Origin: Bacillota bacterium
Lineage (GTDB): Bacteria > Bacillota > Halanaerobiia > Halanaerobiales > M55B127
Length of the DNA stretch: 64,000 nt
NCBI GenBank assembly: GCA_051745185.1
Contig: JBNJDV010000001.1
Location: forward strand, 745 to 64,744
Direction of reading: 5' to 3'
Every line of letters starts with the position of its first letter. The first letter of the stretch is position 1. The notes beneath the pieces are model-generated. The model did not search any database. It saw only the letters and a program-made list of their open reading frames with translations, and was not told the origin of the DNA. This document shows, one piece after another, positions 19,165-39,064 of this stretch. A program made the position numbers and the translations under genes.

Positions 19165-19884
19165 TTAATCCTCCCTTAAATACTTTTTCTCCCAATTTAT
19201 TCTCGCCTGAGGTTTTTTTAGATATTTTGGTGTTAGTTCTTCGATATTTGAAGAAATACCGTTTTTTAAATATCTATACCCTATTAAAGATAAATTAAAA
19301 CCACCATAGTTTTGAATGTTTTTAACAATTTTTATTTTGTCATCCTTAAGTTCAGAGAAATACCTATAATTATTATCAATACCTGATCCGAACAATATCA
19401 TCTTTTGTTTGAACTTTTTATTAAACTCCATGATATCAGCGATATTTACAGCCTGGTCTTTTTTTAGCCTTTTTAAAAACTCTTCATTACTAACATCTTT
19501 AAAAACTGCAGTATATACTCTTTGGTTGCGAGCATCAATAGTAGGTACTAAAATTGAGTTCTCATAATGCTCTGAAAGAACAAATGCCATATATTCTAAG
19601 GTTGAAATAGAATATATCGGAACATCTAAGGCCATCTTAAAAGCCTGTACTGTACTTAAACCTATCCTTAAACCGGTAAATGAACCCGGACCATTAGTTA
19701 CTACTATACCATCTAAATCATTTAATTTTAAACCTGTTTCAAATAAAAGTCTTTTTATAATTGGTAAAAGTCTTTCACTGTGCCTTCTTTTTAACTTTAT
19801 ATTTATTTCTCCAATAAACTTCCCTTTATTGTTTAATCCAACTGAGCAGATATCTGTACTTGTATCAATTCCTAAAATCAACAT
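19165..19884 (-). CDS. tsaB: tRNA threonylcarbamoyladenosine biosynthesis protein TsaB
   Basis: Starts [10 protein letters not shown] and contains GPGSFTGLRIG, the TsaB (YeaZ) pattern. Confidence 0.9.
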   Translation of the reverse strand: MLILGIDTSTDICSVGLNNKGKFIGEINIKLKRRHSERLLPIIKRLLFETGLKLNDLDGIVVTNGPGSFTGLRIGLSTVQAFKMALDVPIYSISTLEYMAFVLSEHYENSILVPTIDARNQRVYTAVFKDVSNEEFLKRLKKDQAVNIADIMEFNKKFKQKMILFGSGIDNNYRYFSELKDDKIKIVKNIQNYGGFNLSLIGYRYLKNGISSNIEELTPKYLKKPQARINWEKKYLRED

Positions 19885-20359
19885 TTGTTTTCAGTCCTTC
19901 AATTATTTTTTTACTAAGATTACCTTCAGCCTTTAATATTATTTTCCTTTCATTCTCTGACACTCTTTTGATTTTTATATATAAAAAGTCGTCTGAAATA
20001 TAATCAAAGACCAACTGGGGCCATTCGACTGCTTTTATATCATTTCTAGCAATATATTCTTCGATCCCTAAATCTAAAAGTTCTTCTTTAGTATCTATAC
20101 GATAAAAATCCATGTGTAACAAACCTGGATTGTTTTCATATTCATTGATCAAATTAAAAGTAGGGCTAGTAATTTCAAAATCAATACCCAAGCCCTCTGC
20201 AATACCTTTAACTAATACAGTTTTTCCGGCTCCAAGATCACCGGTTAAAAGAATAATCTGAGAAAAAAGATTCTTGTCTTTTTTTATTATTTCAGCAATT
20301 ATTCTACCTATTGATTTTGTTTTTTTAAAATCATTAGTTATTAATTCCAAAAATTTCAC
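19865..20359 (-). CDS. tsaE: tRNA threonylcarbamoyladenosine biosynthesis ATPase TsaE
   Basis: Contains Walker A GDLGAGKT and [10 protein letters not shown]...HMDFYR, the TsaE (YjeE) pattern. Confidence 0.9.
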
Positions 20360-20429
20360 TTCCTTAATTTCTTAACTGTATATTTATTAGCTATTAACAT
20401 TATACTTGAGAAAGTTTTTTAAATCAAGA

Positions 20430-20456
20430 AACCCCATATCAAATTGATATGGGGCT
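20430..20456 (-). terminator. rho-independent terminator after hydA
   Basis: Hairpin CCCCAUAUC-AAUUU-GAUAUGGGG followed by the U-rich UUUCUUGAUUU, about 27 nt after the hydA stop. Confidence 0.5.
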
Positions 20457-20482
20457 AAATAAACTATATTGCTCTATTTTTA

Positions 20483-22204
20483 CTAATTTTTGGCTCTCTC
20501 TTTAAACCCTGTATGAAGTAGTTGATGTGAAAGTTCACTATTTGGTTCTTTTAAATATTCATCATATAACTTTTTAATCATAGGATTTTCATGTGACTTT
20601 CTAACAACACTTTTTTCATCTGTATTTGCTAATCCTTGTCCTCTAAGTACTTTCTTTTCTTCACTTATTGGTAATGGTTGACCTCCACCACCGACACATC
20701 CGTGTGGACAGGCCATTACTTCAATAAAGTCATATTCTGATTTGTTTTCTCTTACTTCATCAAGTAGTTTTTCTGCATTTCTTAATCCATTTGCTATTGC
20801 AACTTTAACTACTTTATCTCCAATTTCAACTTCAGCACTATTTACACCTTTAAATCCTAGGTTAAGTCTCTCTAATTCTTCGCCAGTAACTTTTTCTTTT
20901 ACAGTTCTTACCGCAGCTTCTGCCACCCCACCAGTGGTACCAAAGATTGTTCCGGCACCAGTGTGTTTACCCATTAACTCATCATAATCATCATCTTTTA
21001 GATTTTTGAATTGAATTCCTACTTCTTTAATCATCCGAGCAAGTTCTCTAGTTGTTAATACTGCATCAGTATCTTTAAATTTAGTAGCATTAATCTCTTC
21101 TCTTTCTTTTTCAAACTTCTTAGCTGTACAGGGCATTATTGATACTGTATATATCTTTTCCGGATCAATACCGGTTTTTTCAGCATAGTAAGTCTTTGAT
21201 AATGCAGAAAACATCTGTTGTGGTGATTTTGCAGAAGATAAATGGTTTAATAAATCTGGATAGTTATGTTCTGCATATTTAACCCAACCTGGACAACATG
21301 ATGTTATATGTGGAAGGTTCTTATTTTCTGTAAGTCTTTTTAGAAATTCTGAACCCTCTTCTAAAATAGTTAGGTCAGCAGTAAATTCTGTAGAAAATAC
21401 ACTGTCAAAACCTAATTTTCTTAAAGCAGAAACTAACTTCCCAGTAACTACCGAACCTGGTTCATATCCAAATTCTTCACCAATTGTAGCCTGAATTGAA
21501 GGTGCTGTCTGAACAACCACATGTATATTATCATCTTCAAGAGCATGCCATACATTTTTGATTTCACTGACCTCTGTAATAGCACCCACTGGACAAACTG
21601 TTGCACATTGACCACAGTTGGCACAGTTAATTTCACTTTGCGGTAAATCAAATGCTGTAGTAACAATAGAATCAAAACCTCTATTACTAAACTGTAAGGC
21701 AGAAACTCCCTGAACTTCTTCACAGACCCTTACACATCTACCACATAAAATACATTTATTTGGATCTCTTTTTAAAGCTGGTCCAACTTCATCACGGGGT
21801 ACCTCCCGTACCTGACCTGCAATTTCATCTACATCTTCTCTGGCAATACCTAAACTGTGTGTTATATCCTGTAGTTCACAACTTCCATTACGATCACAAC
21901 CTAAACAATCATTAGGATGGTTAGCTAAAAGTAGTATTACATTTCTTCTTCTTGCTCTTCTAGCTTTCATGCTGGTTGTACTAATTTTCATCCCTTCAGT
22001 AACAGGTGTTACACATGAAGCAACTAATGAATTACTTTCTAAATCTTCTACAACACAAACCCGGCAAGCACCATGGAGTGTTAAATCTGGATGGTAACAT
22101 AGATATGGTACATCTATTCCAACTTCTTTAGCAGCTTCAAGTACTGATGTTCCTTTTTCTACTTCAACTTTTTGATCATCTATAATTAAACTTACTTTTT
22201 CCAT
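20483..22204 (-). CDS. hydA: [FeFe]-hydrogenase catalytic subunit (HydA of HydABC/Hnd type)
   Basis: 573 aa with an N-terminal 2Fe-2S ferredoxin-like domain, several 4Fe-4S motifs, and all three H-cluster motifs intact: TSCCPGW, MPCTAKKFE and EVMACPHGCVGGGGQP. Confidence 0.93.
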   Translation of the reverse strand: MEKVSLIIDDQKVEVEKGTSVLEAAKEVGIDVPYLCYHPDLTLHGACRVCVVEDLESNSLVASCVTPVTEGMKISTTSMKARRARRRNVILLLANHPNDCLGCDRNGSCELQDITHSLGIAREDVDEIAGQVREVPRDEVGPALKRDPNKCILCGRCVRVCEEVQGVSALQFSNRGFDSIVTTAFDLPQSEINCANCGQCATVCPVGAITEVSEIKNVWHALEDDNIHVVVQTAPSIQATIGEEFGYEPGSVVTGKLVSALRKLGFDSVFSTEFTADLTILEEGSEFLKRLTENKNLPHITSCCPGWVKYAEHNYPDLLNHLSSAKSPQQMFSALSKTYYAEKTGIDPEKIYTVSIMPCTAKKFEKEREEINATKFKDTDAVLTTRELARMIKEVGIQFKNLKDDDYDELMGKHTGAGTIFGTTGGVAEAAVRTVKEKVTGEELERLNLGFKGVNSAEVEIGDKVVKVAIANGLRNAEKLLDEVRENKSEYDFIEVMACPHGCVGGGGQPLPISEEKKVLRGQGLANTDEKSVVRKSHENPMIKKLYDEYLKEPNSELSHQLLHTGFKERAKN

Positions 22205-22222
22205 TTAGTATTTACCTCCTTT

Positions 22223-24025
22223 TTAACCCTGTGATATTGCATCAACCGGGCATTTTTTCTCACAAGCTCCACAAGAAATACAAACCGCTTCATCTATAAT
22301 ATAGTACTTTCCATCACCTTTACTAATTGCATCAACCGGACATACTTTAACACACTGTCCACAGGCAACACAAGCTTCAAAATTAATTTTATATGCTGAA
22401 GCTAATTCCTGACAGCTTCCAGCTGGGCATTTCTTGTCATTTATATGGGCTTCATATTCATTTCTAAAGTACTGAATAGTACTTAATACAGGATTAGGAG
22501 CAGTTTGTCCTAAGCCGCAAAGAGAAGTTCCTTTTATATGTTCACCTAGTTCTTCTAAAAGTTCAATATCTCCCTGTTTTCCTTCACCTTCACAGATTCT
22601 GTTAAGAATTTCTAACATCCTTTTAGTCCCTTCTCTACAGGGAGTGCATTTACCACAAGACTCACTTTGAGTAAAGGTTAAAAAGAATCTAGCAACATCT
22701 ACCATACAAGTGCTTTCATCCATTACAACCATACCACCTGAACCCATCATTGCTCCTACCTCGATTAATGAATCATAATCTATTGGTAAATCAAGGTATT
22801 CTTCAGGTATACATCCCCCTGATGGTCCACCGGTTTGAATAGCTTTATACTTCTTATCTTCAGTAAGTCCTCCACCTATGTCAAATACAACTTCTCGTAA
22901 TGTAGTACCCATTGGTACTTCTACAAGTCCTGTATTTTTTATTTTACCTGTTAATGCAAATACTTTAGTTCCTTTACTGTTTTCTGTACCAATAGATGAA
23001 AACATCTCAGAACCTTCATTTATTATATAGGGTATATTTGCAAATGTTTCAACATTGTTTATATTGGTCGGTTTACCCCATAATCCCTTTGTGGCAGGAT
23101 AAGGAGGTCTAGGGTTAGGCATACCTCTCTTGCCTTCTATTGATGCCATTAAGGCGGTCTCTTCACCACATACAAATGCTCCGGCTCCCTTTTTGATGTG
23201 TAATTCAAAGTTAAAGCCAGAACCAAAAATATCTGTACCTAAAAGTCCTAACTCTTTTGCATCATTAATAGCTTTTTTAAGTCTTTCGATTGCAAGTGGA
23301 TATTCGGCACGAACATATACATAACCTTCGTCTGCTCCGATTGCATAACCTGCAATAATCATTCCTTCTATTATTTTATGAGGGTCACCCTCTAAAATAC
23401 TACGGTCCATAAATGCACCCGGGTCACCTTCATCTGCATTACAAATTACATACTTTTTATCACTTTCACTATCAGATGCAAACTGCCATTTTAGGCCGGT
23501 GGGAAAACCTCCTCCACCACGTCCTCTAAGACCGGAATTTTTAACCTCTTCAATTATTTCTTCAGGTGTCATCTCAGTTAATGCTTTTCCTGCTGCTTCA
23601 TAACCGTTATTTGCTATGTATTCTTCTATACTTTCCGGGTTTATCTTTCCACAGTTAGAAAGTGCAATTCTGTGTTGCTTTTTATAGAAATCTATATCTG
23701 TATAAGAAGGGATGCTTTTTTCTGTTAATGGTTCTTTAAATAATAGTCTTTCAACAACTCTTCCCTTTAAGAGATGTTCATCTACTATTTCTGCTACATC
23801 TTCTTGTTTAACCTGACAGTAAAAAACTCCCTCAGGATAAATAACTAAAATTGGTCCTTTTTCACAAAAACCATGACAGCCAGTTTCAACGATTTTAATC
23901 TCATCTAGTAAGTTTTTATCTGCTAGTTCATCCTGTAATTCATGCTTGATCTTTTTTGAACCGGAAGAAACACAACCAGTACCGGTACAAATTAAGATAT
24001 GTGATCTATATATTGAATCCTTCAA
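22223..24025 (-). CDS. hydB: NuoF-like NAD(P)H-binding flavoprotein subunit of the hydrogenase (HydB)
   Basis: 600 aa with an N-terminal thioredoxin-like 2Fe-2S domain, the FMN/NADH site GLRGRGGGGFPTG, the N3 cluster ESCGKCTPCREG and a C-terminal 2x[4Fe-4S] ferredoxin. Confidence 0.93.
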   Translation of the reverse strand: MKDSIYRSHILICTGTGCVSSGSKKIKHELQDELADKNLLDEIKIVETGCHGFCEKGPILVIYPEGVFYCQVKQEDVAEIVDEHLLKGRVVERLLFKEPLTEKSIPSYTDIDFYKKQHRIALSNCGKINPESIEEYIANNGYEAAGKALTEMTPEEIIEEVKNSGLRGRGGGGFPTGLKWQFASDSESDKKYVICNADEGDPGAFMDRSILEGDPHKIIEGMIIAGYAIGADEGYVYVRAEYPLAIERLKKAINDAKELGLLGTDIFGSGFNFELHIKKGAGAFVCGEETALMASIEGKRGMPNPRPPYPATKGLWGKPTNINNVETFANIPYIINEGSEMFSSIGTENSKGTKVFALTGKIKNTGLVEVPMGTTLREVVFDIGGGLTEDKKYKAIQTGGPSGGCIPEEYLDLPIDYDSLIEVGAMMGSGGMVVMDESTCMVDVARFFLTFTQSESCGKCTPCREGTKRMLEILNRICEGEGKQGDIELLEELGEHIKGTSLCGLGQTAPNPVLSTIQYFRNEYEAHINDKKCPAGSCQELASAYKINFEACVACGQCVKVCPVDAISKGDGKYYIIDEAVCISCGACEKKCPVDAISQG

Positions 24026-24045
24026 TGTTATATACCTCCTTTATG

Positions 24046-24411
24046 TTATTCTTCTAACCTTGCTATAACAAGATCGTCTACAACATTTCCATTTATAATA
24101 TGATTTACAATAATTTTTTTAACATCATCTTTAGTTAAGTTCCCGTAAGTAATCCTGTCTTTTCCAGGTAGTTGAACATCCATTAACGGTTCTTTTTCAC
24201 ACATGCCGATACAACCTGTTTGGGTTACCTCTAGGTCTAAGTCTCTTTTATCAATCTCTTCCATTACAGTTTTTAAAATATCTCTAGCACCAGCAGCAAT
24301 ACCACAGGTACCCATACCAATTATTATCTTTGGTTTATTTAATCCTTTACGCATCTCAATATCTTTTTCTACTTTTTTCCTTAAGTCTCTTAATTCTTCT
24401 AATGATTTCAA
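24046..24411 (-). CDS. thioredoxin-like [2Fe-2S] ferredoxin domain protein
   Basis: 121 aa with the Cys pattern GTCGIAAGA...GCIGMCEKEP. It lies between the GHKL ATPase gene and hydB. Confidence 0.8.
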   Translation of the reverse strand: MKSLEELRDLRKKVEKDIEMRKGLNKPKIIIGMGTCGIAAGARDILKTVMEEIDKRDLDLEVTQTGCIGMCEKEPLMDVQLPGKDRITYGNLTKDDVKKIIVNHIINGNVVDDLVIARLEE

Positions 24412-24959
24412 TTATATTCACCTCCGCGAAGATTGCTTATATTTTCATCAATATATTCTTTTAACCAGTTAATTATTTTGCTGTTATGTATTTTTGTATC
24501 ATCTAATTTATTTTTGATTTCTTTAGTATCAAAGATAAAAACTTCATCATTAAAGATATGTTTATACTTAATATCAAACTCATTTTTCCAAAGTAACATT
24601 GAAATTATAGTCTGTGAAATATCACCTAGAGGAGCACGGTCAATATGATCATGTTCAAACACAGCTTTAATGTTCGTTCCATTTTTATTTGAACTAATTT
24701 TAAAGTCTCCATTACATCTTTGCGCTGCTGCTTTAAAAAGTGATAAACCGAGTCCAACCGGCCTAGTTTTTCTTGTTGTAACAAATGGATCTGTAATATT
24801 ATCTAATATATCTTTTTTTATACCGGTTCCATCATCTTTAATATTAATAGAAAAAATGTTTTTTTCAGTATCTTCAGTTATTGTAATATAAATATTATCT
24901 GCATCAGCCTTAATTGAGTTTTCAGCTATATCAAGAATATGTAAGGCTAATTCCTTCAT
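24408..24959 (-). CDS. stand-alone GHKL (histidine-kinase-like) ATPase domain protein
   Basis: 183 aa with N-box HILDIAENS, G1 DDGTGI and G2 GLGLSLFK. There is no HisKA/DHp domain, and the C-terminal ~80 aa are unrecognised. Both ends overlap the neighbouring genes (TGATG and ATGA). Confidence 0.75.
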   Translation of the reverse strand: MKELALHILDIAENSIKADADNIYITITEDTEKNIFSINIKDDGTGIKKDILDNITDPFVTTRKTRPVGLGLSLFKAAAQRCNGDFKISSNKNGTNIKAVFEHDHIDRAPLGDISQTIISMLLWKNEFDIKYKHIFNDEVFIFDTKEIKNKLDDTKIHNSKIINWLKEYIDENISNLRGGEYN

Positions 24960-25447
24960 CAGCTTTGGAAGTTCTTTAATATTTCAGGAACTTTTTCCGG
25001 AGTCATTCTACCGAATGTCTCATCATTAATCATAATTACTGGTGCTAGACCACATGCACCAATACAGGCTACAGTTTCTAAAGTAAAGTTTAAGTCCTCT
25101 GTTGTTTCCCCACTATCAATATTTAATTCAGCTTTTAATTGGTCTAAAACTTCAGCACCACCTCTAACATGACAGGCAGTTCCAGTACAAACTCTAACAA
25201 TATTTTCACCTCTTGGTTCTAGGTGAAATTGTGAGTAAAAGGTAACAACACCAAAAACTTGGCTTAATGATAAATCTAAATTACAAGCTATTTCTTTTAA
25301 TACTTCTTCTGGTAGATATCCATATTCATCTTGAGCATCTTGCAGGATTGGTATTAGATACTTCTCTTCTAGACTATAGTTTTTAAGTATTTCATCTAAC
25401 GGAGCTAAGTATTTATCCATATTTTTTTGATCACATCTACAAGGCAT
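24959..25447 (-). CDS. hydC: NuoE-like [2Fe-2S] subunit of the hydrogenase (HydC)
   Basis: 162 aa with the NuoE pattern CTGTACHVRG...CIGACGLAP. Confidence 0.9.
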   Translation of the reverse strand: MPCRCDQKNMDKYLAPLDEILKNYSLEEKYLIPILQDAQDEYGYLPEEVLKEIACNLDLSLSQVFGVVTFYSQFHLEPRGENIVRVCTGTACHVRGGAEVLDQLKAELNIDSGETTEDLNFTLETVACIGACGLAPVIMINDETFGRMTPEKVPEILKNFQS

Positions 25448-25509
25448 AATATATTGACCTCCTATCTTGTATTTAATTTATTTAGTCTATGTTAAATTAT
25501 ACACAAACT

Positions 25510-25538
25510 ATTATAAGTGAATATTTTCACTTTGTCAA
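25510..25538 (-). promoter_or_regulatory. consensus sigma-A promoter of the hydC...hydA operon
   Basis: On the minus strand, TTGACA (25533-25538), a 17-nt spacer, then TATAAT (25510-25515), about 60 nt upstream of the hydC ATG (SD GGAGG). Confidence 0.65.
25515..25532. promoter_or_regulatory. Rex-box-like palindromic operator inside the promoter spacer
   Basis: Perfect inverted repeat AAGTGAA-N4-TTCACTT. The core GTGAA-N6-TTCAC matches the Rex consensus TTGTGAA-N4-TTCACAA. It lies between the -35 and -10 boxes. Confidence 0.45.
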
Positions 25539-25559
25539 TGCTTCCATAAAAATTTTGTG

Positions 25560-26294
25560 CTAAAGTAAATATTCGGGATTATTATGTGTTTTGAAATATT
25601 GGAAAATATTATTTAAGGAAACTTTATCTGGTAAATATATCTCCATAGTTGGTTTTATTTGATTAAGATAATGACTATCTGAGTTTTTTAAAAAAATAAA
25701 TTTTTTTAGATATGGAAAGGTCTTATAGTAATAAGCTATTGATTTATTAAAACTCATTTCTATAAATGAAATCTCTAAATCATCAGGTATAAATCCTAAG
25801 TTTTTTATCAAACCAAAACTTCTATCTATATGTGAAGGGACACAAATTCCGTTGTTTTTATGTGTTAGGTCAACTAATCTATTAATACTTAAATCTGTTG
25901 AGTTTAATAATAGTTTTTCTTCCTTTTCTATAAATGTATCATTTTTATCTACAACAATTTGATATCCGAACTTCTCTTCATCATTTTTTATATCAGGAAG
26001 GTTATTATAGATAATTTTTGAGTAACTATTAAGATCATTAAGGCTTGCAAAATAACTTAAAAGATGAATTTCCTCTTTACTTTGAACTTCTATTCCCGGA
26101 ATTAGATATATATTTTTCTCCTTGGCAATCTCTAATGCACTGGCAATATTTTTAGCAGAATTGTGATCTGTAATTGATATTATATTTATTCCTTTTTTTG
26201 CAGCAGTTTCAATTATATTACCAGGTGTCATTGTAATATCTGCACAGGGAGATAAAACTGAATGGATATGTAAATCCAGTAGATATTTCTGCAT
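25560..26294 (-). CDS. PHP-domain phosphoesterase
   Basis: 244 aa with PHP metal-ligand motifs in order: DLHIHS, ITDHNS, GIEV...IHLL, PSHIDR and NSDSHYL. Confidence 0.8.
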   Translation of the reverse strand: MQKYLLDLHIHSVLSPCADITMTPGNIIETAAKKGINIISITDHNSAKNIASALEIAKEKNIYLIPGIEVQSKEEIHLLSYFASLNDLNSYSKIIYNNLPDIKNDEEKFGYQIVVDKNDTFIEKEEKLLLNSTDLSINRLVDLTHKNNGICVPSHIDRSFGLIKNLGFIPDDLEISFIEMSFNKSIAYYYKTFPYLKKFIFLKNSDSHYLNQIKPTMEIYLPDKVSLNNIFQYFKTHNNPEYLL

Positions 26295-26295
26295 A

Positions 26296-26646
26296 CTATA
26301 CTCCTAAGCTGGCTAACTTTTTTGCCAATTCATAAGCAGAAAGTTCAGATTTAAAGAGATTAACTTTTTTTTCTTTAGCCCTATTAACCGTTTTTTCATC
26401 TATTTCAATATCTTCACAAACAATCACACCTGAAACTTCAGTAAGTAAGGCTACTGCAATTACATTTTGATGGCCTTGAATAGTAATCCAAAGTTCACCA
26501 TCTTGTGCTCTAGCCATAACATTACTTAATAAATCACCGATATAGCAGCCGTTGACCTCTTTATTTAAATCAGCTTCATTAATTAAATCAAGTTGCAGTT
26601 GTTCCACAACATTTTTTAATATCAAATAACTCACCTCACTAATCAT
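26296..26646 (-). CDS. DRTGG-domain protein (paralog 2)
   Basis: It aligns by eye with the protein at 28423-28800: IGDLLSNVMA vs GADLMSDVLA, and AKEKKVNLFKSELSAYELAKKLASLGV vs AKEKGILLYMTDKPMFEACGILYNLGV. The start is uncertain: ATG 26646 overlaps the upstream stop by 8 nt, TTG 26625 has SD GAGGTGA, and the track start 26679 is less likely. Confidence 0.7.
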   Translation of the reverse strand: MISEVSYLILKNVVEQLQLDLINEADLNKEVNGCYIGDLLSNVMARAQDGELWITIQGHQNVIAVALLTEVSGVIVCEDIEIDEKTVNRAKEKKVNLFKSELSAYELAKKLASLGV

Positions 26647-27964
26647 TATTGTTGTTATTGTTATTATTCTCTTTATCATTCATAACCGGTGGCAGTTCAT
26701 GGGTTAAAAGTGAAAGTTGGTCTGCTAGGTCTCCAATTTCTTTTCTTAGTACAAATATACAGTCTGATTTTTTTGCAAGTCCGTTTACAACATCTTCTGC
26801 AAATGTTTCACAGTCTGGAGCTCCACATGCTGCACAGTCTAAACCGGGTAAACTTTCAATTAATTTTTCTAATTTATCTAGTTTATCTATTGCTTTTACA
26901 AAATCTTCATCTAATTTTTCTGCACTAATTTCTTTTATCTTCTCATCCAATTTAAAGTTATAGTCGTCTATGTTTTGTTTTATAAAATCTTTTTTGGATC
27001 TAGTGCTGCTTTTGATATTATATTTAGCTTGAAATGGATTACTTACATTAAAAATCCCTCCAACACAACCAGTTGGACAGGCTACAAGTTCCAAATATCT
27101 AATTCCTTTAAGATTACCTCTTGTTAATTCATCTAATGCTTTTTTAATATTATGTATACCGGAAACTGATAGAGTTTCAATAACTCCTTCATTGTTTAAT
27201 ATATCATTTTCACCACCACTTTGACCCCATGATATTCCTAAAAACGGTTGGTATTTTTGTTTTAACTTTACATTTTTTAAGTTGTTGTCTTTTATGATGT
27301 TCATGATTTTTGGATATACTTTTTCTACAGCAATAGCTCCAGTTAAGTTCGATTGGGGTCTACCTAATGGATTTTTAATTGCAGTTACCTTAGCTGGACA
27401 GGGAGTGATAAAAAAGATGCTGTAACTATTTTTCTTTTTTTGGTCTACTTTTTTATCAACATAGTCTGCCATTAAGTCCACAGGTGAATTAAAAGGTACT
27501 ATATTATCAATTAGTTCAGGATATAGTAAAGAAATTAATCTTACTATTACAGGACATGAAGATGAAATATGGGTTCCTTTATGTTCGGATAGAAACTGTT
27601 TTGTTTTTTTAGATACTGCTTCTGCTGCATAAGCAACATCCCAAACTTCATCAAAACCTAACTTATAGACTGCCTTTTTTATCTTTTCTGGGTTAAACTT
27701 TCTATCAAATTGACCATAAAAACTTGGTGCTAGAAGAGCTATGTTATAATCATAATTCTTTAGTTCGTCAAGATCATCTGTTTTTGCATACTTTGCATGA
27801 TATTGACAGGTTCTTATACATTCAGCACAGTCAATACATAAGTCTTCTTTTATGGTTGCTTTACCCTGATGGACACGAATTGCTTTTGTGGGGCAGTTTT
27901 TTACACAGTTTGTACAGCCCTCACATTTATCCTCTTTTAATAATACAGAATGTTTATTGCTCAT
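26639..27964 (-). CDS. HydS-like putative sensory [FeFe]-hydrogenase paralog (2x4Fe-4S + H-domain + C-terminal Cys4 extension)
   Basis: 441 aa. N-terminal CEGCTNCVKNCP and CIDCAECIRTCQ. The H-domain motifs are altered: SSSCPV (for TSCCPxW), TPCPAK (for MPCxxK) and ACPTGCVGG. The C-terminus carries CAACGAPDC-x16-C (Cx2Cx4Cx16C) and a poly-Asn tail. Confidence 0.85.
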   Translation of the reverse strand: MSNKHSVLLKEDKCEGCTNCVKNCPTKAIRVHQGKATIKEDLCIDCAECIRTCQYHAKYAKTDDLDELKNYDYNIALLAPSFYGQFDRKFNPEKIKKAVYKLGFDEVWDVAYAAEAVSKKTKQFLSEHKGTHISSSCPVIVRLISLLYPELIDNIVPFNSPVDLMADYVDKKVDQKKKNSYSIFFITPCPAKVTAIKNPLGRPQSNLTGAIAVEKVYPKIMNIIKDNNLKNVKLKQKYQPFLGISWGQSGGENDILNNEGVIETLSVSGIHNIKKALDELTRGNLKGIRYLELVACPTGCVGGIFNVSNPFQAKYNIKSSTRSKKDFIKQNIDDYNFKLDEKIKEISAEKLDEDFVKAIDKLDKLEKLIESLPGLDCAACGAPDCETFAEDVVNGLAKKSDCIFVLRKEIGDLADQLSLLTHELPPVMNDKENNNNNNNND

Positions 27965-27979
27965 TATTACACCCGCTTT

Positions 27980-28408
27980 TTACTTATCTATATTGATAAT
28001 AGCTTTTAATTTTGTATATTCTCCAAGTTCGCTTTCAACTTCAAGGTCATCAGAAAATCTTTTAACATTATTTAGACCCATTCCGGCTCCAAAACCTAAT
28101 TCTCTAATATCATCTGTTGCTGTTGAATATCCAGCTTTAAATGCTCTATTAATATCTTCTATACCCGGACCATCATCATCAGAAACAATACTGATTTGTT
28201 TTGTATCAATATATGCTTTTAATCTTCCACCATCTGAGTGGATTATTAAATTCATTTCAAGTTCATATGTAATTATTGAAGTTCTTCTTATATCCTTATT
28301 ATTTACTCCCAGTTTTCTTAATAGGCTTTTAAGTTTACTGGAAACTTCACCACCACTTGCAAAATCTCCTTTTTCAATCTCACTATCTATTATCTTTTTT
28401 TTCTTCAA
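27980..28408 (-). CDS. RsbW/SpoIIAB-like GHKL Ser/Thr kinase-type ATPase
   Basis: 142 aa with N-box YELEMNLIIHS, G1 DDGPGI and G2 GFGAGMGLNNV. Its size and layout match anti-sigma-factor-type kinases, but no STAS partner or sigma factor is nearby. Confidence 0.75.
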   Translation of the reverse strand: MKKKKIIDSEIEKGDFASGGEVSSKLKSLLRKLGVNNKDIRRTSIITYELEMNLIIHSDGGRLKAYIDTKQISIVSDDDGPGIEDINRAFKAGYSTATDDIRELGFGAGMGLNNVKRFSDDLEVESELGEYTKLKAIINIDK

Positions 28409-28422
28409 AATTTATCATCCAC

Positions 28423-28800
28423 CTACTCTATTTTAACCATTTTTTCGGGTTTAACCCCCAGATTATATAATATTCCACAGGCTTCAAACATCGGTTTATC
28501 TGTCATATATAAAAGTATTCCCTTCTCTTTTGCCAGTTCTACAGTTTCTTTAACAGGAGTTTTGCCGCGCACAAATATGATTATCTTTATTCCGATCATT
28601 TCCGAAGTCCTAACAACCTGTGGGTTGGTCAATCCAGTTATCAGCATGGTTTTAGCATTAGAAAATGCCAAAACATCACTCATTAAATCAGCTCCACAGG
28701 CAGTTTTTACATCTATATCTAATTTTTCAGGAACTTCAAAAATTTCCTTTAAATTTAAGTGCTCTTTAATTTGTTTTAACTTCATTTTTTTATTTACCAT
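28423..28800 (-). CDS. DRTGG-domain protein (paralog 1)
   Basis: 125 aa with a DRTGG-like core (MLITGLTNPQVVRT) and paralogy to 26296-26646. Its start overlaps the stop of the upstream amidohydrolase gene by 11 nt. Confidence 0.7.
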   Translation of the reverse strand: MVNKKMKLKQIKEHLNLKEIFEVPEKLDIDVKTACGADLMSDVLAFSNAKTMLITGLTNPQVVRTSEMIGIKIIIFVRGKTPVKETVELAKEKGILLYMTDKPMFEACGILYNLGVKPEKMVKIE

Positions 28801-29971
28801 CCTTTATGTTATCAACAATATTACCGTTAATTACCACCTTTTCAATGTTTGATGTGATATTAAGTGGATGTCCATTATAGATTACTAGATCAGCATCTTT
28901 ACCTACCTCTATACTACCAACCTTATCGTCTACACCTAAGATTTCAGCTGGATTAATAGTAATTGCTTTTAATGCTTCATTAGGATCTAAGCCTTCTTTT
29001 ATTGCCAAAGCAGCATAAACAGTTGCGTTTTTAGTAGGAATTACAGGATGATCACTCATCAGAGCAATTTTAACTCCCGCTTTTGCCAAAACCCCAGCAG
29101 TCTTAAAACTTAATTCGCTTAATTCAACCTTTACCCTACCTGTCATTGAAGGACCAACAACTGCAGGTATACCTGCCTCTGCAATTTCATCTGCTACTTT
29201 ATGACCTTCTGTACAGTGTTCTAAGGTTATATTAATATCAAATTCTTTGGCGATTCTTATTACAGTCATGATATCATCAGCACGATGTGCATGAACTTTA
29301 AGTGGAAGTTCTTTATTAATAACCCTAATCAGACTTTCCATTTTTATATCTCTATCAAATGGTTTATCTTCCTTTTTAGCATTTTCTTTTTTTTGTATGT
29401 AATCCTGTGCTTTCATTAGATTTTCTCTCATGATAGCTGCGATACCCATCCTAGTTGATGGTAGTTTATTTTGTTTATTATATACTCTTTTTGGATTTTC
29501 ACCAAAAGCAGCTTTTAGACCAGCAGGATTTTTTAAAACCATTTGATCAACTGTTTTACCATATGTTTTTATAACCAAACTTTCTCCACCAAGTACATTA
29601 GCACTTCCCGGACCAGTCATTATTGTTGTCACACCATTTTGCAGTGATTCTTTTAAGGCAAAATCATCTGGATTAACTGCATCTATAGCCCTTAAGTGGG
29701 GAGTTATTGGATCGGTCATCTCATTACAATCCTGACCTTCCCAACCCAAACCATCTTCTTCGATTCCCAGATGAGTATGAGCATCAATAATACCAGGTAT
29801 TACAGTTTTCCCTTTTCCATCAATTACTTCATACTCATCTTTAATTTCAATATATTCTGAAATTTCTGCTACTTTTCCATCTTTAACTAAGATTGACCCT
29901 TCTTGATAGTCTTTTCCCGACATTGTTAATATCTTAGCATCTTTAATTAATATCACAAGTTTACACTTCAC
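28790..29971 (-). CDS. metal-dependent amidohydrolase (COG1228-like)
   Basis: 393 aa with the metal motif IDAHTHLG, later His/Asp ligands (HAHRADD, TLEHC, SDHP) and DADLVI near the C-terminus. Confidence 0.85.
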   Translation of the reverse strand: MKCKLVILIKDAKILTMSGKDYQEGSILVKDGKVAEISEYIEIKDEYEVIDGKGKTVIPGIIDAHTHLGIEEDGLGWEGQDCNEMTDPITPHLRAIDAVNPDDFALKESLQNGVTTIMTGPGSANVLGGESLVIKTYGKTVDQMVLKNPAGLKAAFGENPKRVYNKQNKLPSTRMGIAAIMRENLMKAQDYIQKKENAKKEDKPFDRDIKMESLIRVINKELPLKVHAHRADDIMTVIRIAKEFDINITLEHCTEGHKVADEIAEAGIPAVVGPSMTGRVKVELSELSFKTAGVLAKAGVKIALMSDHPVIPTKNATVYAALAIKEGLDPNEALKAITINPAEILGVDDKVGSIEVGKDADLVIYNGHPLNITSNIEKVVINGNIVDNIKDGK

Positions 29972-30974
29972 TTTCTTTTAAAGTTATTATTTGTTCAATA
30001 TATCCCACTTTATGTTTGTGATGATTTTTAACTTCTGGTTTGATATATTTTTTTAATTTTTTTGTATTTTCTTTAGATAAGTACCCTAAATTTTTCAATA
30101 CCTCAATAATTACCGGAGGTATTGCTCTTGAATTACCATCTTCAATTTTAACACAGATTCCTGGACCTCCATTGTATAATCCTAGACAGAATACACCTTC
30201 TGCTCCCATTTTACCTGTCAGTTTACCACTCATTGCATCTATTAAGTCAGTATTAAATCTTTTTGTTCCTGCGATCATCTCGGGATATTCTTTAATACTT
30301 TCTGTTATTCTTTCAGCTGCTTGTTTATATTTATCAGAAAGGTATTCTGGATTAGCTAATTTTGCAAAACCCAGTGACATATTTTTTATTGAAAGACCAA
30401 AAACCACCACTCCACAACCATCTTCTCCCAAAAGAATATCATCTTTTTTTGTTTCAGTTATATCACAGATGGTCTTTAACATTAATTTTTGTACAGGATG
30501 ATCTTTATCTAAATAATTATCTAAATCCCAGTTATTATACTTGCAAAGTGCTAAAAGGGCAGCATGTTTACCAGAACAATTATTATGTATCTCAGTAGGC
30601 TTTTCACCAGACAAATATAGTTTGTGAGAAGCTTCTTTGTAATAGGGGTCATGAATCCCACACTGAAGTTTATCTTCACTTACATTAATTTTTTCTAAAA
30701 TACTTTTAACTGCTTTAATATGTATGTCTTCACCATTATGTGAAGCACACATAACTGCTATTTCTTTATTAGTAAAATTAAAATGGTCAGCTGCTTTTGA
30801 AGTAATAACCGGTAAAGTCTGAAAAGGTTTAGCCGCTGACCTTAAATATGTGATTTTATCAGGGTCTCCATGATAGTATAGAAGTTTCCCATCAGGTGCA
30901 GTTACAGAAATATCTCCTCTGTGTCTGCTTTCAATAAGATTACTGCGGTAGACATTAGCGATATAATCAGCCAT
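29961..30974 (-). CDS. asparaginase II family protein (PF06089-like)
   Basis: 337 aa with N-terminal SNLIESRHRGDISV, LRSAAKPFQ and NCSGKHAA, the pattern of the thermolabile asparaginase II family. It overlaps the amidohydrolase gene by 11 nt. Confidence 0.75.
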   Translation of the reverse strand: MADYIANVYRSNLIESRHRGDISVTAPDGKLLYYHGDPDKITYLRSAAKPFQTLPVITSKAADHFNFTNKEIAVMCASHNGEDIHIKAVKSILEKINVSEDKLQCGIHDPYYKEASHKLYLSGEKPTEIHNNCSGKHAALLALCKYNNWDLDNYLDKDHPVQKLMLKTICDITETKKDDILLGEDGCGVVVFGLSIKNMSLGFAKLANPEYLSDKYKQAAERITESIKEYPEMIAGTKRFNTDLIDAMSGKLTGKMGAEGVFCLGLYNGGPGICVKIEDGNSRAIPPVIIEVLKNLGYLSKENTKKLKKYIKPEVKNHHKHKVGYIEQIITLKESEV

Positions 30975-31013
30975 TTGTACACCCCTTATTTAAATATAGC
31001 ATAGAACTATGTA

Positions 31014-31376
31014 TTAAAGATTTACTAACCCTAAACTTATTCCAAGTGCCGTATCTACTCTTTCTAATATTTCACCATTTAACTTTGCCACTTCACTTTT
31101 TAGCCTTTTTTTGTCAATTGTTCTAATCTGTTCTAATAGTATTACTGAATCTCTTTCTAACCTTGAATCACCAGCAGAAATCTCAACATGTGTCGGCAAC
31201 TGCGCTTTATTAATTTTAGACGTTATAGCAGCCACTATAATTGTTGGACTATACTTGTTCCCAATATCATTTTGAATAATTAAAACAGGTCTGACCCCAC
31301 CCTGTTCTGAACCCACCACAGGGTTAAGGTCAGCATAATATACATCTCCTCTTTTTAAATCCATAAATTTACTCAC
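31014..31376 (-). CDS. mazF: type II toxin MazF/EndoA (PemK family endoribonuclease)
   Basis: 120 aa: [29 protein letters not shown]...ITSK...LPTHVEI, closely like Firmicutes EndoA/MazF. Confidence 0.9.
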
Positions 31377-31644
31377 ACTCCACTAAACATTTTTCATAAA
31401 TCTTTATCGAATTACTATCACACTTCAAACCTTCATGCGCTAATTCTAAATTAATATCACTCATTTCAATATAGCCTTTTTTAAGCTGTTCTCTTAGTTC
31501 AATCTTTTTGTGTTCACATAAATAATGAGTTACCGCATCTTTTATAAACTTATCCCTACTGACTCTACGGTATTTAATATAATCATCTACATCTTTTAAC
31601 AGTTCCTTGGAAATTTCAATAGTAATTTTATTTTTTTCTTCCAA
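31369..31644 (-). CDS. mazE: MazE/EndoAI-like RHH antitoxin
   Basis: 91 aa, with a TTG start after SD GGAGGTG. It has an RHH-like N-terminus and [14 protein letters not shown], resembling B. subtilis EndoAI (RGYMEMAKINL). It overlaps mazF by 8 nt. Confidence 0.75.
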
Positions 31645-31777
31645 TCACCGCACCTCCAGAAGTATTGAAATATTATAAAACAGATGGGGCAACACCCCAC
31701 CTGCAGACCACCTTATTTTTTAATATATATATTTTCCTAATTACTAGTATATCTTAAATTTTTAATTTATACAATAT

Positions 31778-34027
31778 CTAAAGTTGATAATATAAGCCTC
31801 TTTCTTTAATATATTCGATTAAATTTTTATAGGTTTCATTTTTTTCTATTGTAGAACTATCACCTATAATAATTAACTTTCTTTTTGCCCTTGTTAAAGC
31901 AACATTCAATCTTCTTAAGTCTCTTAAAAAACCTATATTATTATGAGTATTACTTCTCACTAATGAAATTAAAACAACTTCTTTTTCTCGGCCTTGAAAA
32001 CCATCAACAGTATTGATTTCTAGATTTTCGATGTTATTGTGTTTTTTAAATAAATCTACCTGATCTTTATAGGGTGCAATAACAGCAAGATCTTTTGCTT
32101 TTAATTTTGATTTTAAAGCTTCATCAACTATATCTAAAAGTATTTCCATTTCAACAGGGTTATCATATGAATTAGAGCCTTTTAATGACCTTTCATTGGC
32201 TGTCATCATTTTTGTGTCAATAAATACAATCGGTTTATCAGGGTTTAGGGATTTATCTGTAAAACACTCTTTCCCATTCATTTTATAACCTAAATCCTCT
32301 AATGTATGGCCAGCTACTTCAGGTGAACTTTCTAGTTTGTTATTATAAAACTCTTTATTAGAGAAATCCATGATATCATCATGCATTCTGTATTGTATTT
32401 GAAGCATAGACCTGATTTTTTTACCATAGATCTGATATAATCTTTCAAACATTGACTTATTTAAACCTTTTTTAGCAGCTTTTTTGTTTAAAATTGTTGG
32501 TGGCAGCTGTTTATGGTCACCAATTAATACTGCTTTTTTCCCTTTTATAAAAGGTATAAGGGCTGCTGGTTCAGTTGATTGAGTTGCTTCATCTATTACA
32601 ATTAAATCAAAATTATACTCAGATAAAAGTTCTGAACCTGCAGTTGAATTCGTTGCACAAACTACATCTGCTTTTTCTAATAAATCTCTAAGAGCTGTTT
32701 CCTCTAATCTGTTAATTTTATTAAACAGTTCATCGATCTCTTGCTGTAATTTTATCCAATTTGCCATCTCTTCAATTATAGCAGGTTTTACACCTCTTGC
32801 TCCTTTATTTTGTTCAGCTTTCTTTATAATTTTTTTATCGCTCATTCCTCTTCTTAATCTATCACCCGGGTGTTTATATTGGTCTTGTTTATCTAATAAT
32901 TTATTAGCTTTTTCTCTTAACTTTTCAGCTTCTTCATATTTTGGATGCTCCAATATTTTATAGTCAAGGGTGTGTTTTCTTAAAAGGGGTGTAACTCTTA
33001 TTGGATGACCCAGTCTTAAAACATCTGTACCCATATTAACTAATCTTTCAACAAGGTTATCAACAGCGACATTTGAATCAGCTGTAGCCAATACTTCTTT
33101 ATTCTTTTTAACTGCTTGATTAATGATTTCAATTGCAGTCATAGTTTTTCCTGTACCAGGTGGTCCCTGGATTAAATAAAAATCATTAGCTAATATAGCT
33201 GACTTTACAGCTTCTTTTTGAGAATTATTTAAATCCTCATTTATCCATTCAATCTCATCCTGTGATTTTTCTTTCCAGGATAGCTTTTCTAAACCAAGTA
33301 ATTTTTCCTGTAAATTACCGTATTTTGTATCTCGATTTGTGTTTTTAAACTTTTCGAGTGCATCAAGCATTCTTTGAAAGGTAACGTCATTTACATATAA
33401 GTCTAATCTTAAAGAATAACTGAATACAAATTTTGGTGGCTTTTCATCAAATACAACGGTCAAAGAATAGTTAGTCTTTTCTGAAACCGTTCCAGTTGGA
33501 TTATTATCATCAAGTGTTCTATTCTTACTAACCATAACTAAATCACCAATACTTATTTCAGTATCTGGTAATTTTTCTCCAACCTCTTTTTTCATAAACT
33601 TAACTTTGGGTTTATGGTCATAAGTATGACCATCCTTTTTACCCCTCATATCTAATAAGGCTCTTCCCTTTTTTTCTCTCTGTCTTGGAGTCAACCTTTT
33701 AATTTCAATTTCATGTCTTTCCATTTCTTCTTTTCTTTCCAACTCAACTAAATAAGTGTACTTATTATAATAATCATTAAGTTCACTTCTTCTTTCTGCA
33801 TCATTATCTATCTCTAAATGGACCTTTACTCCCCCAATTTTGTTGTTATTCATTACATTAATCACTTTATTGCAGACTTCATTTTTAACTTCTACTTCTG
33901 CAATATTATTTTTTATATTAATATTACCTATATCATTACTGCTAATATTGGCTTCATTTATAAAAGCACCAACAATATCGCCAGGACCAATATGCTTATC
34001 TATATCTTTAATAATGATATTTTGCAT
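31778..34027 (-). CDS. Upf1/IGHMBP2-like SF1B helicase with N-terminal DbpA-type RNA-binding domain
   Basis: 749 aa with Walker A GPPGTGKT, VIDEATQ, GDHKQLPP, QYRMH, TVDGFQGREKEV and LNVALTRAKRKL. The N-terminal ~75 aa (GPGDIVGAFINEANISSNDIGNINIKNNIAEVEV...KIGGVKVHLE) match the DbpA RBD pattern by eye. Confidence 0.85.
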   Translation of the reverse strand: MQNIIIKDIDKHIGPGDIVGAFINEANISSNDIGNINIKNNIAEVEVKNEVCNKVINVMNNNKIGGVKVHLEIDNDAERRSELNDYYNKYTYLVELERKEEMERHEIEIKRLTPRQREKKGRALLDMRGKKDGHTYDHKPKVKFMKKEVGEKLPDTEISIGDLVMVSKNRTLDDNNPTGTVSEKTNYSLTVVFDEKPPKFVFSYSLRLDLYVNDVTFQRMLDALEKFKNTNRDTKYGNLQEKLLGLEKLSWKEKSQDEIEWINEDLNNSQKEAVKSAILANDFYLIQGPPGTGKTMTAIEIINQAVKKNKEVLATADSNVAVDNLVERLVNMGTDVLRLGHPIRVTPLLRKHTLDYKILEHPKYEEAEKLREKANKLLDKQDQYKHPGDRLRRGMSDKKIIKKAEQNKGARGVKPAIIEEMANWIKLQQEIDELFNKINRLEETALRDLLEKADVVCATNSTAGSELLSEYNFDLIVIDEATQSTEPAALIPFIKGKKAVLIGDHKQLPPTILNKKAAKKGLNKSMFERLYQIYGKKIRSMLQIQYRMHDDIMDFSNKEFYNNKLESSPEVAGHTLEDLGYKMNGKECFTDKSLNPDKPIVFIDTKMMTANERSLKGSNSYDNPVEMEILLDIVDEALKSKLKAKDLAVIAPYKDQVDLFKKHNNIENLEINTVDGFQGREKEVVLISLVRSNTHNNIGFLRDLRRLNVALTRAKRKLIIIGDSSTIEKNETYKNLIEYIKERGLYYQL

Positions 34028-38995: not shown

Positions 38996-39064
38996 ATATA
39001 TTTACCTCCATTGAATTTATATTTATTTATATCATTATTTATTTTAAATTAATTATCATGATAT

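Follow-up and report, generated by a model that had tools for sequence, protein, structure and literature searches.

Introduction

The closest described relative of the system reported here is TamHydS of Thermoanaerobacter mathranii, the type enzyme of the group D (M2e) [FeFe]-hydrogenases, which turns over H2, slowly, and whose gene lies upstream of bifurcating hydABC and beside a histidine-kinase-like ATPase (PMC8163306; PMC13104023). Published work concerns the enzyme alone and calls its partners and signal path unknown: Land 2020 (PMC8163306) characterised TamHydS, noted the flanking kinase-like ATPase and posed signal transduction as a question, and a 2026 paper (PMC13104023) still cites "limited knowledge" of TamHydS complexes. 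The signal output of "sensory" [FeFe]-hydrogenases is explicitly left unresolved in both, and group D enzymes are without even a PAS domain. Here we describe a TamHydS-like gene in 64,000 nucleotides (nt) of a Halanaerobiales genome (Bacillota bacterium M55B127, assembly GCA_051745185.1, contig JBNJDV010000001.1, positions 745 to 64,744 of the forward strand; hereafter the window). It is set among genes for two small DRTGG proteins (D1 and D2), a GHKL-type protein (Ks) and a PHP-family phosphoesterase (PHP), upstream of hydABC genes that enclose a second GHKL protein (Ke). These five genes and Ke are best explained as one conserved accessory cassette, D1-Ks-[sensor]-D2-PHP-Ke, which stands mostly beside HydABC and sometimes beside Rnf.

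Parts of this arrangement are already known. Verbeke 2013, citing Calusinska 2010, states that in every Thermoanaerobacter the bifurcating hydrogenase genes are preceded by genes for a histidine kinase and a group D hydrogenase; Mormile 2014 reports the same ten-gene putative operon in Halanaerobium hydrogeniformans; and Rydzak 2012 proposed H2-responsive control of bifurcating hydrogenases by kinases, phosphatases or PAS sensors encoded upstream. A first reading of the window from its letters alone (the sequence-only reading) had called the module uncharacterised; with Land 2020 these papers have the cluster and the idea of an H2 response in print: the cluster, the linkage of a group D hydrogenase to a kinase-like ATPase and hydABC, and the H2-sensor hypothesis are prior knowledge. 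The same reading held that the roles of the partner genes have not been worked out, and this stands in the open-access papers and bioRxiv preprints that we searched, where we found no role for the DRTGG, PHP or GHKL partners and, in the DRTGG literature, nothing on hydrogenase or Rnf regulation. The D1-Ks-D2-PHP-Ke core, its gene fusions, the swapping of its sensor, its association with Rnf, and the re-assignment of PHP and Ke appear to be new.

In group C systems (T. maritima HydS, R. albus HydS, and T. saccharolyticum HfsB with HfsC/HfsD, encoded by hfsABCD) a low-activity hydrogenase paralogue is likewise encoded next to a bifurcating hydrogenase and to a kinase/phosphatase pair. Their signal output runs through a fused PAS domain and the neighbouring pair, whose phosphatase is of the PP2C type, whereas the window cassette has neither PAS nor PP2C and carries two DRTGG proteins, PHP and a second GHKL protein instead. 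For hfsABCD there is genetic evidence that the sensor and the adjacent kinase/phosphatase pair regulate fermentation. HoxBC-HoxJ-HoxA of Cupriavidus necator similarly couples a low-activity hydrogenase paralogue, as H2 sensor, to a GHKL kinase, but the hydrogenase is of the [NiFe] class, the kinase is a true histidine kinase bearing a PAS domain, and a response regulator acts as the transcription factor; neither of the last two occurs here. The partner-switching modules SpoIIAB-SpoIIAA-SpoIIE and RsbW-RsbV-RsbU resemble the cassette in combining a stand-alone GHKL protein (Ks has 142 amino acids, aa) with small single-domain proteins and a hydrolase; they differ in that no STAS antagonist, PP2C or sigma factor is found in or near the cassette, and in that Ks scores far under the SpoIIAB equivalog cut-off.

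Results

The locus and its conservation

An open reading frame (ORF) check of the 64-kb window places all cassette and hyd genes on the minus strand and reproduces the gene coordinates, strand and junction lengths of the sequence-only reading. The features, in order of transcription, are:

28423-28800, minus: D1, small divergent single-domain DRTGG protein; 125-aa ORF with probable start at ATG 28785
27980-28408, minus: Ks, 142-aa GHKL ATPase or serine-kinase homologue of the SpoIIAB/RsbW class; HATPase_c, with N, G1 and G2 boxes intact
26639-27964, minus: HydS-type group D (M2e) [FeFe]-hydrogenase paralogue, 441 aa, putative H2 or redox sensor; two Fer4 domains, Fe_hyd_lg_C and PF04060
26296-26646 (or 26296-26679), minus: D2, second small DRTGG protein, 116 aa from ATG 26646; Pfam DRTGG
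25560-26294, minus: PHP-family metal-dependent phosphoesterase, 244 aa; Pfam PHP
25489-25538, minus: hydC promoter/operator region within a 112-nt gap; from sequence inspection and motif scans
24959-25447, minus: HydC, NuoE-like [2Fe-2S] subunit; PF01257 at 2e-55, NuoE/HoxE models
24408-24959, minus: Ke, 183-aa GHKL ATPase with a C-terminal alpha/beta subdomain; HATPase_c at 3.8e-15
24046-24411, minus: HydD, small thioredoxin-like ferredoxin subunit; PF01257 at 1.6e-06
22223-24025, minus: HydB, NuoF-like flavin mononucleotide (FMN)/NADH subunit; Complex1_51K at 1e-49, nuoF_fam at 534 bits
20483-22204, minus: HydA, catalytic group A [FeFe]-hydrogenase subunit of the NADH-dependent/bifurcating type; NF040763, Fe_hyd_lg_C at 1e-100, Fe_hyd_SSU
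20430-20456, minus: terminator-like hairpin after hydA; 12-pair stem, then a T-rich tail

Within the cassette, D1 and Ks are separated by 14 nt and Ks and HydS by 15 nt, HydS and D2 overlap by 8 nt (at ATG 26646), and D2 and PHP are 1 nt apart; 112 nt then separate PHP from hydC, and the Ke ORF overlaps hydC by 1 nt and hydD by 4 nt. HydA passes the NCBIfam model for the NADH-dependent group A6 (NF040763, 826.7 bits against a cut-off of 765) and is accompanied by a NuoF-like HydB and a NuoE-like HydC, the set expected of a HydABC operon; the enzyme is predicted to be electron-bifurcating. Tests with hidden Markov models (HMMs) bore out the domain calls of the sequence-only reading except for D1, which is recognisable only through its paralogue and its family profile. 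Pfam and NCBIfam scans gave no HisKA, receiver, STAS, sigma-factor or helix-turn-helix match in the six proteins; Ks and Ke consist of an ATP-binding domain only, with no HisKA or Response_reg match, and the locus is thus not a two-component system. Among the neighbours of 82 loci no sigma factor or dedicated transcription factor is conserved, rex alone occurring in 6 loci, and no STAS antagonist or PP2C phosphatase appeared in Pfam scans of the cassette or among conserved neighbour clusters of those loci. The earlier statement that dimerisation and histidine-phosphotransfer (DHp), receiver, STAS, sigma and DNA-binding parts are missing thus holds for both the HMM scans and the neighbour survey.

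Conservation was assessed in a HydS-anchored scan of one genome per species, searched with HMMs built from the window proteins. Each scan contributed its 80 best-scoring loci, and the fractions below are therefore indicative and not an unbiased census, a point that counts against reading our percentages at face value. Smaller HydS and Ke alignments were used for these scans, the 49-sequence HydS and 27-sequence Ke sets being too diverse, and D1 and D2 were counted by domain-level search, with antisense or over-extended ORFs masking them in about 11 loci. The 80 HydS-anchored loci come from Halanaerobiales, many families of Clostridia, Negativicutes, Thermoanaerobacteraceae, Thermosediminibacteraceae, Atribacterota, Desulfobulbaceae, Syntrophorhabdus and spirochaetes; Thermotogae are not among them. 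Ks lies directly upstream of HydS in 74 of 76 testable loci and D1 upstream of Ks in 70 of 76, while D2 lies downstream of HydS in 69 of 78 and PHP downstream of D2 in 68 of 78. The complete order D1-Ks-HydS-D2-PHP was found in 62 of 72 testable loci from several phyla (Halanaerobiales, many Clostridia, Negativicutes, Thermoanaerobacterales, Atribacterota and Desulfobacterota), a recurrence that makes the linkage of the five genes more than chance. Median gaps are short throughout (D1-Ks, -4 nt; Ks-HydS, 22 nt; HydS-D2, -2.5 nt; D2-PHP, -1 nt).

Linkage to hydABC, which the sequence-only reading had proposed to check by comparative genomics, is likewise conserved. Of the complete cassettes, 40 are flanked by 7 kb or more on either side; among these, HydC was found beside 33, Ke 34, HydD 30, HydB 33, HydA 30 and Rnf 4. 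The cassette is co-directional with hydABC, as in the window, or divergent from it; in three loci (L025, L056 and L059) it is inserted between hydC and Ke-hydD-hydB-hydA, and a variant arrangement PHP-Ke-hydD-hydC-hydB-hydA also occurs. In the spirochaete loci and a few others, the Ks-HydS pair is all that remains of the cassette. One such minimal pair, in a Clostridia metagenome-assembled genome (L007, 9050-11299), directly follows a CheW-like gene in an apparent chemotaxis cluster, and no DRTGG or PHP genes come after it.

Natural fusions and sensor swapping

Among the 150 best representatives of HydS-family clusters we found a GHKL-HydS fusion (P0145), which sits in the usual hydC-Ke-hydD-hydB-hydA context, two DRTGG-HydS fusions (P0175 and P0205), and HydS-DRTGG fusions in four independent clusters (P0126, P0160, P0226 and P0242), where D2 is joined to the C-terminus of HydS. 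Each of these full-length fusions is found again on separate contigs: six carry the 607-aa form, six the 534-aa form, and two to three each of the rest. A Pfam-confirmed D1-Ks fusion is present in L018. No fusion in this search involved PHP or Ke. Since natural fusions join them, HydS, Ks, D1 and D2 most likely form one physical complex, for which these predicted proteins are the strongest available evidence. HydS-domain matches inside HydB were set aside as Fer4 cross-matches and not fusions.

A second, Ke-anchored scan of metagenomes gave 80 loci, of which the 31 with at least 4.5 kb upstream of Ke were classified. Ks plus HydS was found in 12. Six have a CBS-CBS-Ks fusion and no HydS (L087, L089, L109, L121, L123 and L130; the first two placed here after sequence inspection), and five have D1-Ks-D2-PHP with no sensor (L102, L112, L131, L135 and L149). 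About five, on human-gut contigs, have PHP only, before hydC-Ke-hydD-hydB-hydA, and three have neither. HydS, which the sequence-only reading had placed at the core of the module, is an optional, interchangeable input, whose place is either taken by a Ks-fused CBS pair or left empty, and the minimal PHP-hydC-Ke variants mean that PHP and Ke persist without the sensory half. On four human-gut contigs (L111, L122, L124 and L126) the 10 kb upstream of PHP-hydC-Ke-hydD-hydB-hydA contain none of D1, Ks, D2 and HydS.

Contrary to what had been supposed, the module is not specific to hydrogenases, and directly precedes rnfCDGEAB in several genomes. D1-Ks-D2-PHP-Ke stands immediately before rnfCDGEAB in Clostridium formicaceticum and Alkaliphilus peptidifermentans, the order D1-Ks-HydS-D2-PHP-Ke-rnfCDGEAB occurs in Caloranaerobacter ferrireducens, and D1-Ks-HydS-D2-PHP-rnfCDGEAB in Halobacteroides halobius; in Desulfatiferula the cassette is divergent from NuoE/NuoF/molybdopterin genes. 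Taken together, the Rnf and other contexts point to NADH/ferredoxin complexes in general as the targets. On three metagenome contigs (L090, L092 and L094) rnfCDGEAB comes immediately after the full cassette and hydC-Ke-hydD-hydB, and no hydA was detected in the stretch separating them.

Ks, the DRTGG proteins and a proposed mechanism

Ks matches HATPase_c (32.6 bits, 1.2e-07, against a Pfam cut-off of 26.4) and falls just short of HATPase_c_2 (25.2 bits against 27.4). The best Protein Data Bank (PDB) matches of its family profile are SpoIIAB (3e-12) and RsbW (1.4e-4), and residues E49, N53, H57, D78-G-P-G82 (DxGPGI) and the GFGAGMGL motif are invariant. By sequence, Ks is shown to be a GHKL protein of the SpoIIAB/RsbW class with intact ATP-binding motifs, and the RsbW/SpoIIAB-like label given to it earlier was apt, SpoIIAB being its closest solved relative in the profile search.

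D2 passes the Pfam DRTGG threshold (35.2 bits, 1.2e-08, cut-off 25.2) and D1 does not (E = 0.055, 13.8 bits). D1 is assigned to the family because it is paralogous to D2 (BLASTP, 4e-07), its family profile matches the DRTGG structures 3L2B and 2IOJ, and its L018 orthologue passes Pfam at 39.6 bits. Its translation probably starts at ATG 28785, where the family consensus begins. Invariant in D1 are D38, S41, D42, R78, G79 and K80 and an FVRGKxP motif; a DL[LM]S motif, not present in AF_1212, is common to D1 and D2, and the canonical TGGDR motif is missing from both. The nearest described relatives by fold are the CBS-DRTGG inserts of family II (CBS-) pyrophosphatases, which belong to the same DRTGG fold family (the 3L2B match) and carry CBS pairs such as are found in the same cassette of other genomes. 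In the pyrophosphatases, however, DRTGG is an internal domain of one enzyme, whereas D1 and D2 are free-standing, are without TGGDR and have motifs of their own (DL[LM]S, and FVRGKxP in D1).

That the cassette is regulatory and functionally tied to HydABC and Rnf complexes is a reading that we hold with much greater confidence than any particular mechanism. As to mechanism, we tentatively favour, with slightly less than even confidence, a sensor-swappable, partner-switching-like module that would act post-translationally on NADH/ferredoxin complexes. In such a module the H-cluster and C-terminal [4Fe-4S] cluster of group D HydS would serve to read H2 or redox state, and the variants with CBS pairs would sense adenine nucleotides. 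Ks would act on or with the DRTGG proteins in an ATP-dependent manner, D1 and D2 taking the place of STAS antagonists or of substrates, with the DL[LM]S serine as candidate contact or acceptor site, and PHP would reset the system. The output would then reach the enzyme complex post-translationally through Ke, which is coupled in translation to HydC and HydD, and the flow of electrons among NADH, ferredoxin and H2 would be tuned to the H2 level or energy charge. The most specific form of this proposal, in which an undescribed D1-Ks-D2-PHP-Ke cassette takes HydS, CBS or no input, uses DRTGG for STAS and PHP for PP2C, and switches HydABC and Rnf post-translationally, is plausible but more doubtful.

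Transcription of hydC

The hydC promoter consists of TTGACA (25538-25533) and TATAAT (25515-25510) on the minus strand with a 17-nt spacer, and is the sole 12/12 match to the sigma-70 consensus in 19800-32000. Its spacer is filled by a perfect 18-bp palindrome, AAGTGAAAATATTCACTT (25532-25515), whose core GTGAA-N4-TTCAC is the sole exact match in the window. A second Rex-like site, TTGTGTATAATTTAACAT (25506-25489), with 2 mismatches, lies directly downstream of the -10 element, and the hydC ribosome-binding site GGAGG is at 25462-25458. For Rex we used the operator consensus TTGT[GT]AA-N4-TT[CA]ACAA, taken in part from a published table, and allowed up to 2 mismatches. With these settings, 17 of 59 loci have a Rex-like site in the 300 nt before hydC, compared with 1.3% of background windows; before the cassette such sites are found in 4 of 76 loci. 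Six loci (L018, L021, L023, L024, L030 and L041) have a rex gene next to the cluster, and the window has none.

These elements show hydC to be under transcriptional control of its own, through a predicted promoter and putative Rex-like operators, and for this reason its co-transcription with the cassette, which the sequence-only reading had raised, is doubtful. The gap between PHP and hydC also stays long in other genomes (median 136 nt, with 3% of the gaps at 20 nt or less), and is the sole junction to do so. No terminator-like site was found between PHP and hydC, so that read-through is possible, and the gap has no riboswitch or other known RNA element at Rfam gathering thresholds.

In an alternative explanation through transcription, Ks could be an anti-sigma factor, or could control a distant regulator, with D1 and D2 as analogues of anti-anti-sigma factors and HydS making hyd or rnf expression H2-responsive. 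The similarity of Ks to the anti-sigma F factor SpoIIAB fits such a scheme, earlier authors assumed transcriptional regulation, and H2-dependent changes of NADH-hydrogenase activity are reported for T. tengcongensis, as cited by Rydzak 2012. We nevertheless regard it as unlikely: about 80 neighbourhoods show neither a conserved sigma factor nor a conserved dedicated DNA-binding protein, the hydC promoter is a perfect sigma-70 and not an alternative-sigma consensus, the one recognisable regulator is Rex, with operators in 17 of 59 loci and rex adjacent in six, and Ke is translationally coupled to structural subunits.

The embedded GHKL protein Ke

Residues 7-102 of Ke match the catalytic and ATP-binding (CA) domains of histidine kinases in a profile search (KinB, 8e-16), and its C-terminal 80 residues, which start with a conserved HIDRxPLG motif, gave no sequence match. 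An AlphaFold2 model (predicted local distance difference test, pLDDT, 86.7) aligned in Foldseek over about 175 columns with N-terminal fragments of MutL/PMS2, with Topo VI-B and with GyrB (template-modelling, TM, scores about 0.5), and also matched CA domains.

The sequence-only reading had regarded Ke as an orphan embedded in the structural operon. Its distribution tells otherwise: PHP accompanies Ke in 28 of the 31 Ke-anchored loci and is directly adjacent to it in many, Ke comes directly after PHP and ahead of rnfC in L162, L163 and L165, and it accompanies the cassette before Rnf with no hydABC nearby. Ke belongs to the cassette, as its last gene in other genomes, rather than to the enzyme. 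HydD always adjoins Ke in hydABC contexts. In an alignment of HydD with 50 homologues only three cysteines are conserved (C36, C67 and C71), together with His104; four cysteines would be expected for a thioredoxin-like [2Fe-2S] ferredoxin, and the cluster may have 3Cys/1His ligation or be arranged in another way.

In C. subterraneus the Ke gene is Tte0891. In that organism HydD co-purifies with HydABC; tte0891 was included in the synthetic operon used to make the complex, and its product is not reported among the co-purifying subunits. The absence of Ke from reported HydABCD purifications fits a transient regulator and not a stable subunit. Its profile also has weak matches to BCKDK, and PDK1 is among the Foldseek matches listed.

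PDK and BCKDK are GHKL-fold kinases that dock on a 2-oxoacid dehydrogenase complex and switch it by serine phosphorylation according to the NADH/NAD+ and ATP/ADP ratios. They serve here as a functional analogy only, the similarity being weak and Ke being without the N-terminal helical domain of the PDKs; we know of no phosphorylation of HydABC or Rnf.

Another explanation is a role in assembly, activation or repair rather than signalling, in which the two GHKL ATPases, two DRTGG scaffolds and PHP would help to mature or reactivate the flavin/iron-sulfur (FeS) NADH module common to HydB and RnfC, with the HydS-like protein as redox partner. HydABC and Rnf, both linked to the cassette, do have the Complex1_51K NADH/FMN module in common, Ke resembles ATPases of the MutL/Hsp90/GyrB type, PHP resembles nucleotide and nucleic-acid hydrolases, and minimal PHP-hydC-Ke-hydD-hydB-hydA variants exist without any sensor. 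However, the fusion of Ks to swappable sensor domains (HydS, CBS) is a mark of signalling systems and not of maturation, Ks is SpoIIAB-like, and active C. subterraneus HydABCD was made in E. coli without the upstream cassette genes, though with tte0891 (Ke) included. On balance this role is improbable.

The PHP phosphoesterase

PHP matches PF02811 at 40 bits (6.4e-10; cut-off 26.4). Residues D7, H9, H11, C17, D43, H44, E69, H77, H155, D206 and H208 are invariant, and from the motifs H9, H11, D43, H44, E69, H77, H155, D206 and H208 would form a complete set of PHP metal ligands. An HSxLSPC motif is invariant in the family. Its residues LSPC (14-17) come directly after the HxH metal motif, where EndoQ has YSKA, and the invariant Cys17 beside the metal site could be a redox switch or an extra metal ligand.

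By profile the nearest solved relatives are EndoQ (2.6e-13, both halves), 3E0F, RNase AM, TM0559, Cv1693 and PolC, and an AlphaFold2 model (pLDDT 94.9) searched with Foldseek gave the same ranking, with a TM score of 0.71 to EndoQ. A CpsB/YwqE-type identity was tried and rejected, no such protein matching at E of 0.01 or less in the PDB profile search or standing among the 50 best Foldseek matches listed. The role of CpsB/YwqE-like protein phosphatase proposed in the sequence-only reading is thereby unsupported; PHP is nearest to EndoQ, RNase AM, the phosphatase acting on adenosine 3',5'-bisphosphate (pAp) and the PHP domains of Pol III. Within the EndoQ/RNase AM/COG0613-COG1379 group, closest by both profile and predicted fold and likewise equipped with the full metal-ligand set, EndoQ has a Zn-ribbon and C-terminal domains, whereas the window PHP is a 244-aa barrel only; it is found in the context of redox enzymes and not of DNA repair, and HSxLSPC is specific to its family.

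The kinship of PHP with enzymes acting on nucleotides and nucleic acids favours somewhat a circuit whose currency is not phosphoserine but a nucleotide: PHP would degrade a signal (pAp, diadenosine tetraphosphate (Ap4A), or a cyclic or linear dinucleotide) or remove a nucleotidyl group, and DRTGG or CBS domains would read the signal. In keeping with this, CBS pairs take the place of HydS in the cassette, and DRTGG and CBS co-occur in CBS-pyrophosphatases regulated by adenine nucleotides or Ap4A. Yet neither the cassette nor its neighbourhood has a conserved nucleotide cyclase or synthetase, and nucleotide binding is not a known property of the DRTGG domain itself; the idea is an indirect one. 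Its chances seem slim.

The HydS-like hydrogenase

The 441-aa HydS-like protein has two Fer4 domains, Fe_hyd_lg_C (1e-31) and a C-terminal PF04060 FeS domain (3e-11), and no PAS domain in the Pfam scan. Its H-cluster cysteines C137, C189, C296 and C300 are invariant in 49 family members, as is the C-terminal C377-x2-C380-x4-C385-x16-C402 in the family alignment, and eight N-terminal cysteines are predicted to hold two [4Fe-4S] clusters. SSSCP in place of TSCCP removes the proton-pathway Cys299, and ITPCP in place of MPC turns Met353 into Thr. Loss of Cys299, replacement of Met353 by Ser or Thr and the absence of PAS are the published hallmarks of M2e/group D; TamHydS has the same two N-terminal [4Fe-4S] motifs, H-domain and Cx2Cx4Cx16C without PAS, has likewise lost Cys299 and has a hydroxyl residue for Met353. 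By motifs and architecture the predicted protein is a group D (M2e) [FeFe]-hydrogenase like TamHydS. The family comprises 337 clusters at 50% identity with E of 1e-30 or less; its wider members are mostly 30-45% identical to the window protein in a search of representatives, and the window protein is a Halanaerobiales-like homologue, whose protein cluster includes accession MGM0444792.1 from a metagenome-assembled genome labelled Bacillota bacterium. Past the last family-conserved residues it ends in a poly-asparagine tail, ENNNNNNND (26639-26670).

That this protein is merely an extra catalytic hydrogenase and the small genes its unrelated neighbours is very improbable: the four H-cluster cysteines and FeS motifs are intact and TamHydS does turn over H2 slowly, but the gene order is conserved across phyla, GHKL and DRTGG domains are fused to HydS, and the lost proton-pathway cysteine and the change of Met353 to Thr are as in low-activity M2e enzymes.

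Discussion

The sensor-swappable module acting post-translationally remains the mechanism that we favour, and several points weigh against it. Ks scores 42.8 bits with the SpoIIAB equivalog model TIGR01925, far under its cut-off of 135 bits, and we know of no role of DRTGG domains as kinase substrates. PHP groups with nucleic-acid and nucleotide phosphoesterases (EndoQ, RNase AM, Cv1693) and not with the protein phosphatases CpsB/YwqE. Ke, whose predicted structure is as MutL/GyrB-like as it is CA-like, may not be a kinase. HydABC of organisms that have no cassette works without one.

The comparative data nonetheless give testable partners: Ks, D1 and D2, which are found fused to HydS; Ke as the likely output; and HydABC and Rnf as likely targets. 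They also indicate that the same machinery can take an adenine-nucleotide input, through CBS domains, instead of an H2 input. If the proposal is correct, the cassette would be the missing output pathway of the group D "sensory" hydrogenases and a new post-translational route by which anaerobes balance NADH, ferredoxin and H2, with a bearing on interspecies hydrogen transfer, gut fermentation, acetogenesis and the engineering of H2 and ethanol yields. It would also give first signalling roles to DRTGG proteins and to the PHP subfamily of the window.

Neighbouring genes and other features of the window

The cassette does not stand alone at its upstream end: an amidohydrolase gene (28790-29971) adjoins D1, with a 4-nt gap or an overlap; an L-asparaginase II gene (29961-30974) is packed behind it. 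This neighbourhood is not conserved in the other loci, where valS-folC is often upstream. Further upstream are a MazF/PemK toxin gene (31014-31376) and, ahead of it, a ribbon-helix-helix antitoxin-like gene (31369-31644), and a strong terminator-like hairpin at 31680-31704 precedes the pair. Positions 31778-34027 encode a 749-aa superfamily-1 helicase (AAA_11/AAA_12) with an N-terminal DbpA RNA-binding domain. The sole Rfam matches at gathering score in the window are a glmS ribozyme/riboswitch (39061-39217, minus strand, 111 bits) and a tRNA (5116-5189, plus strand).

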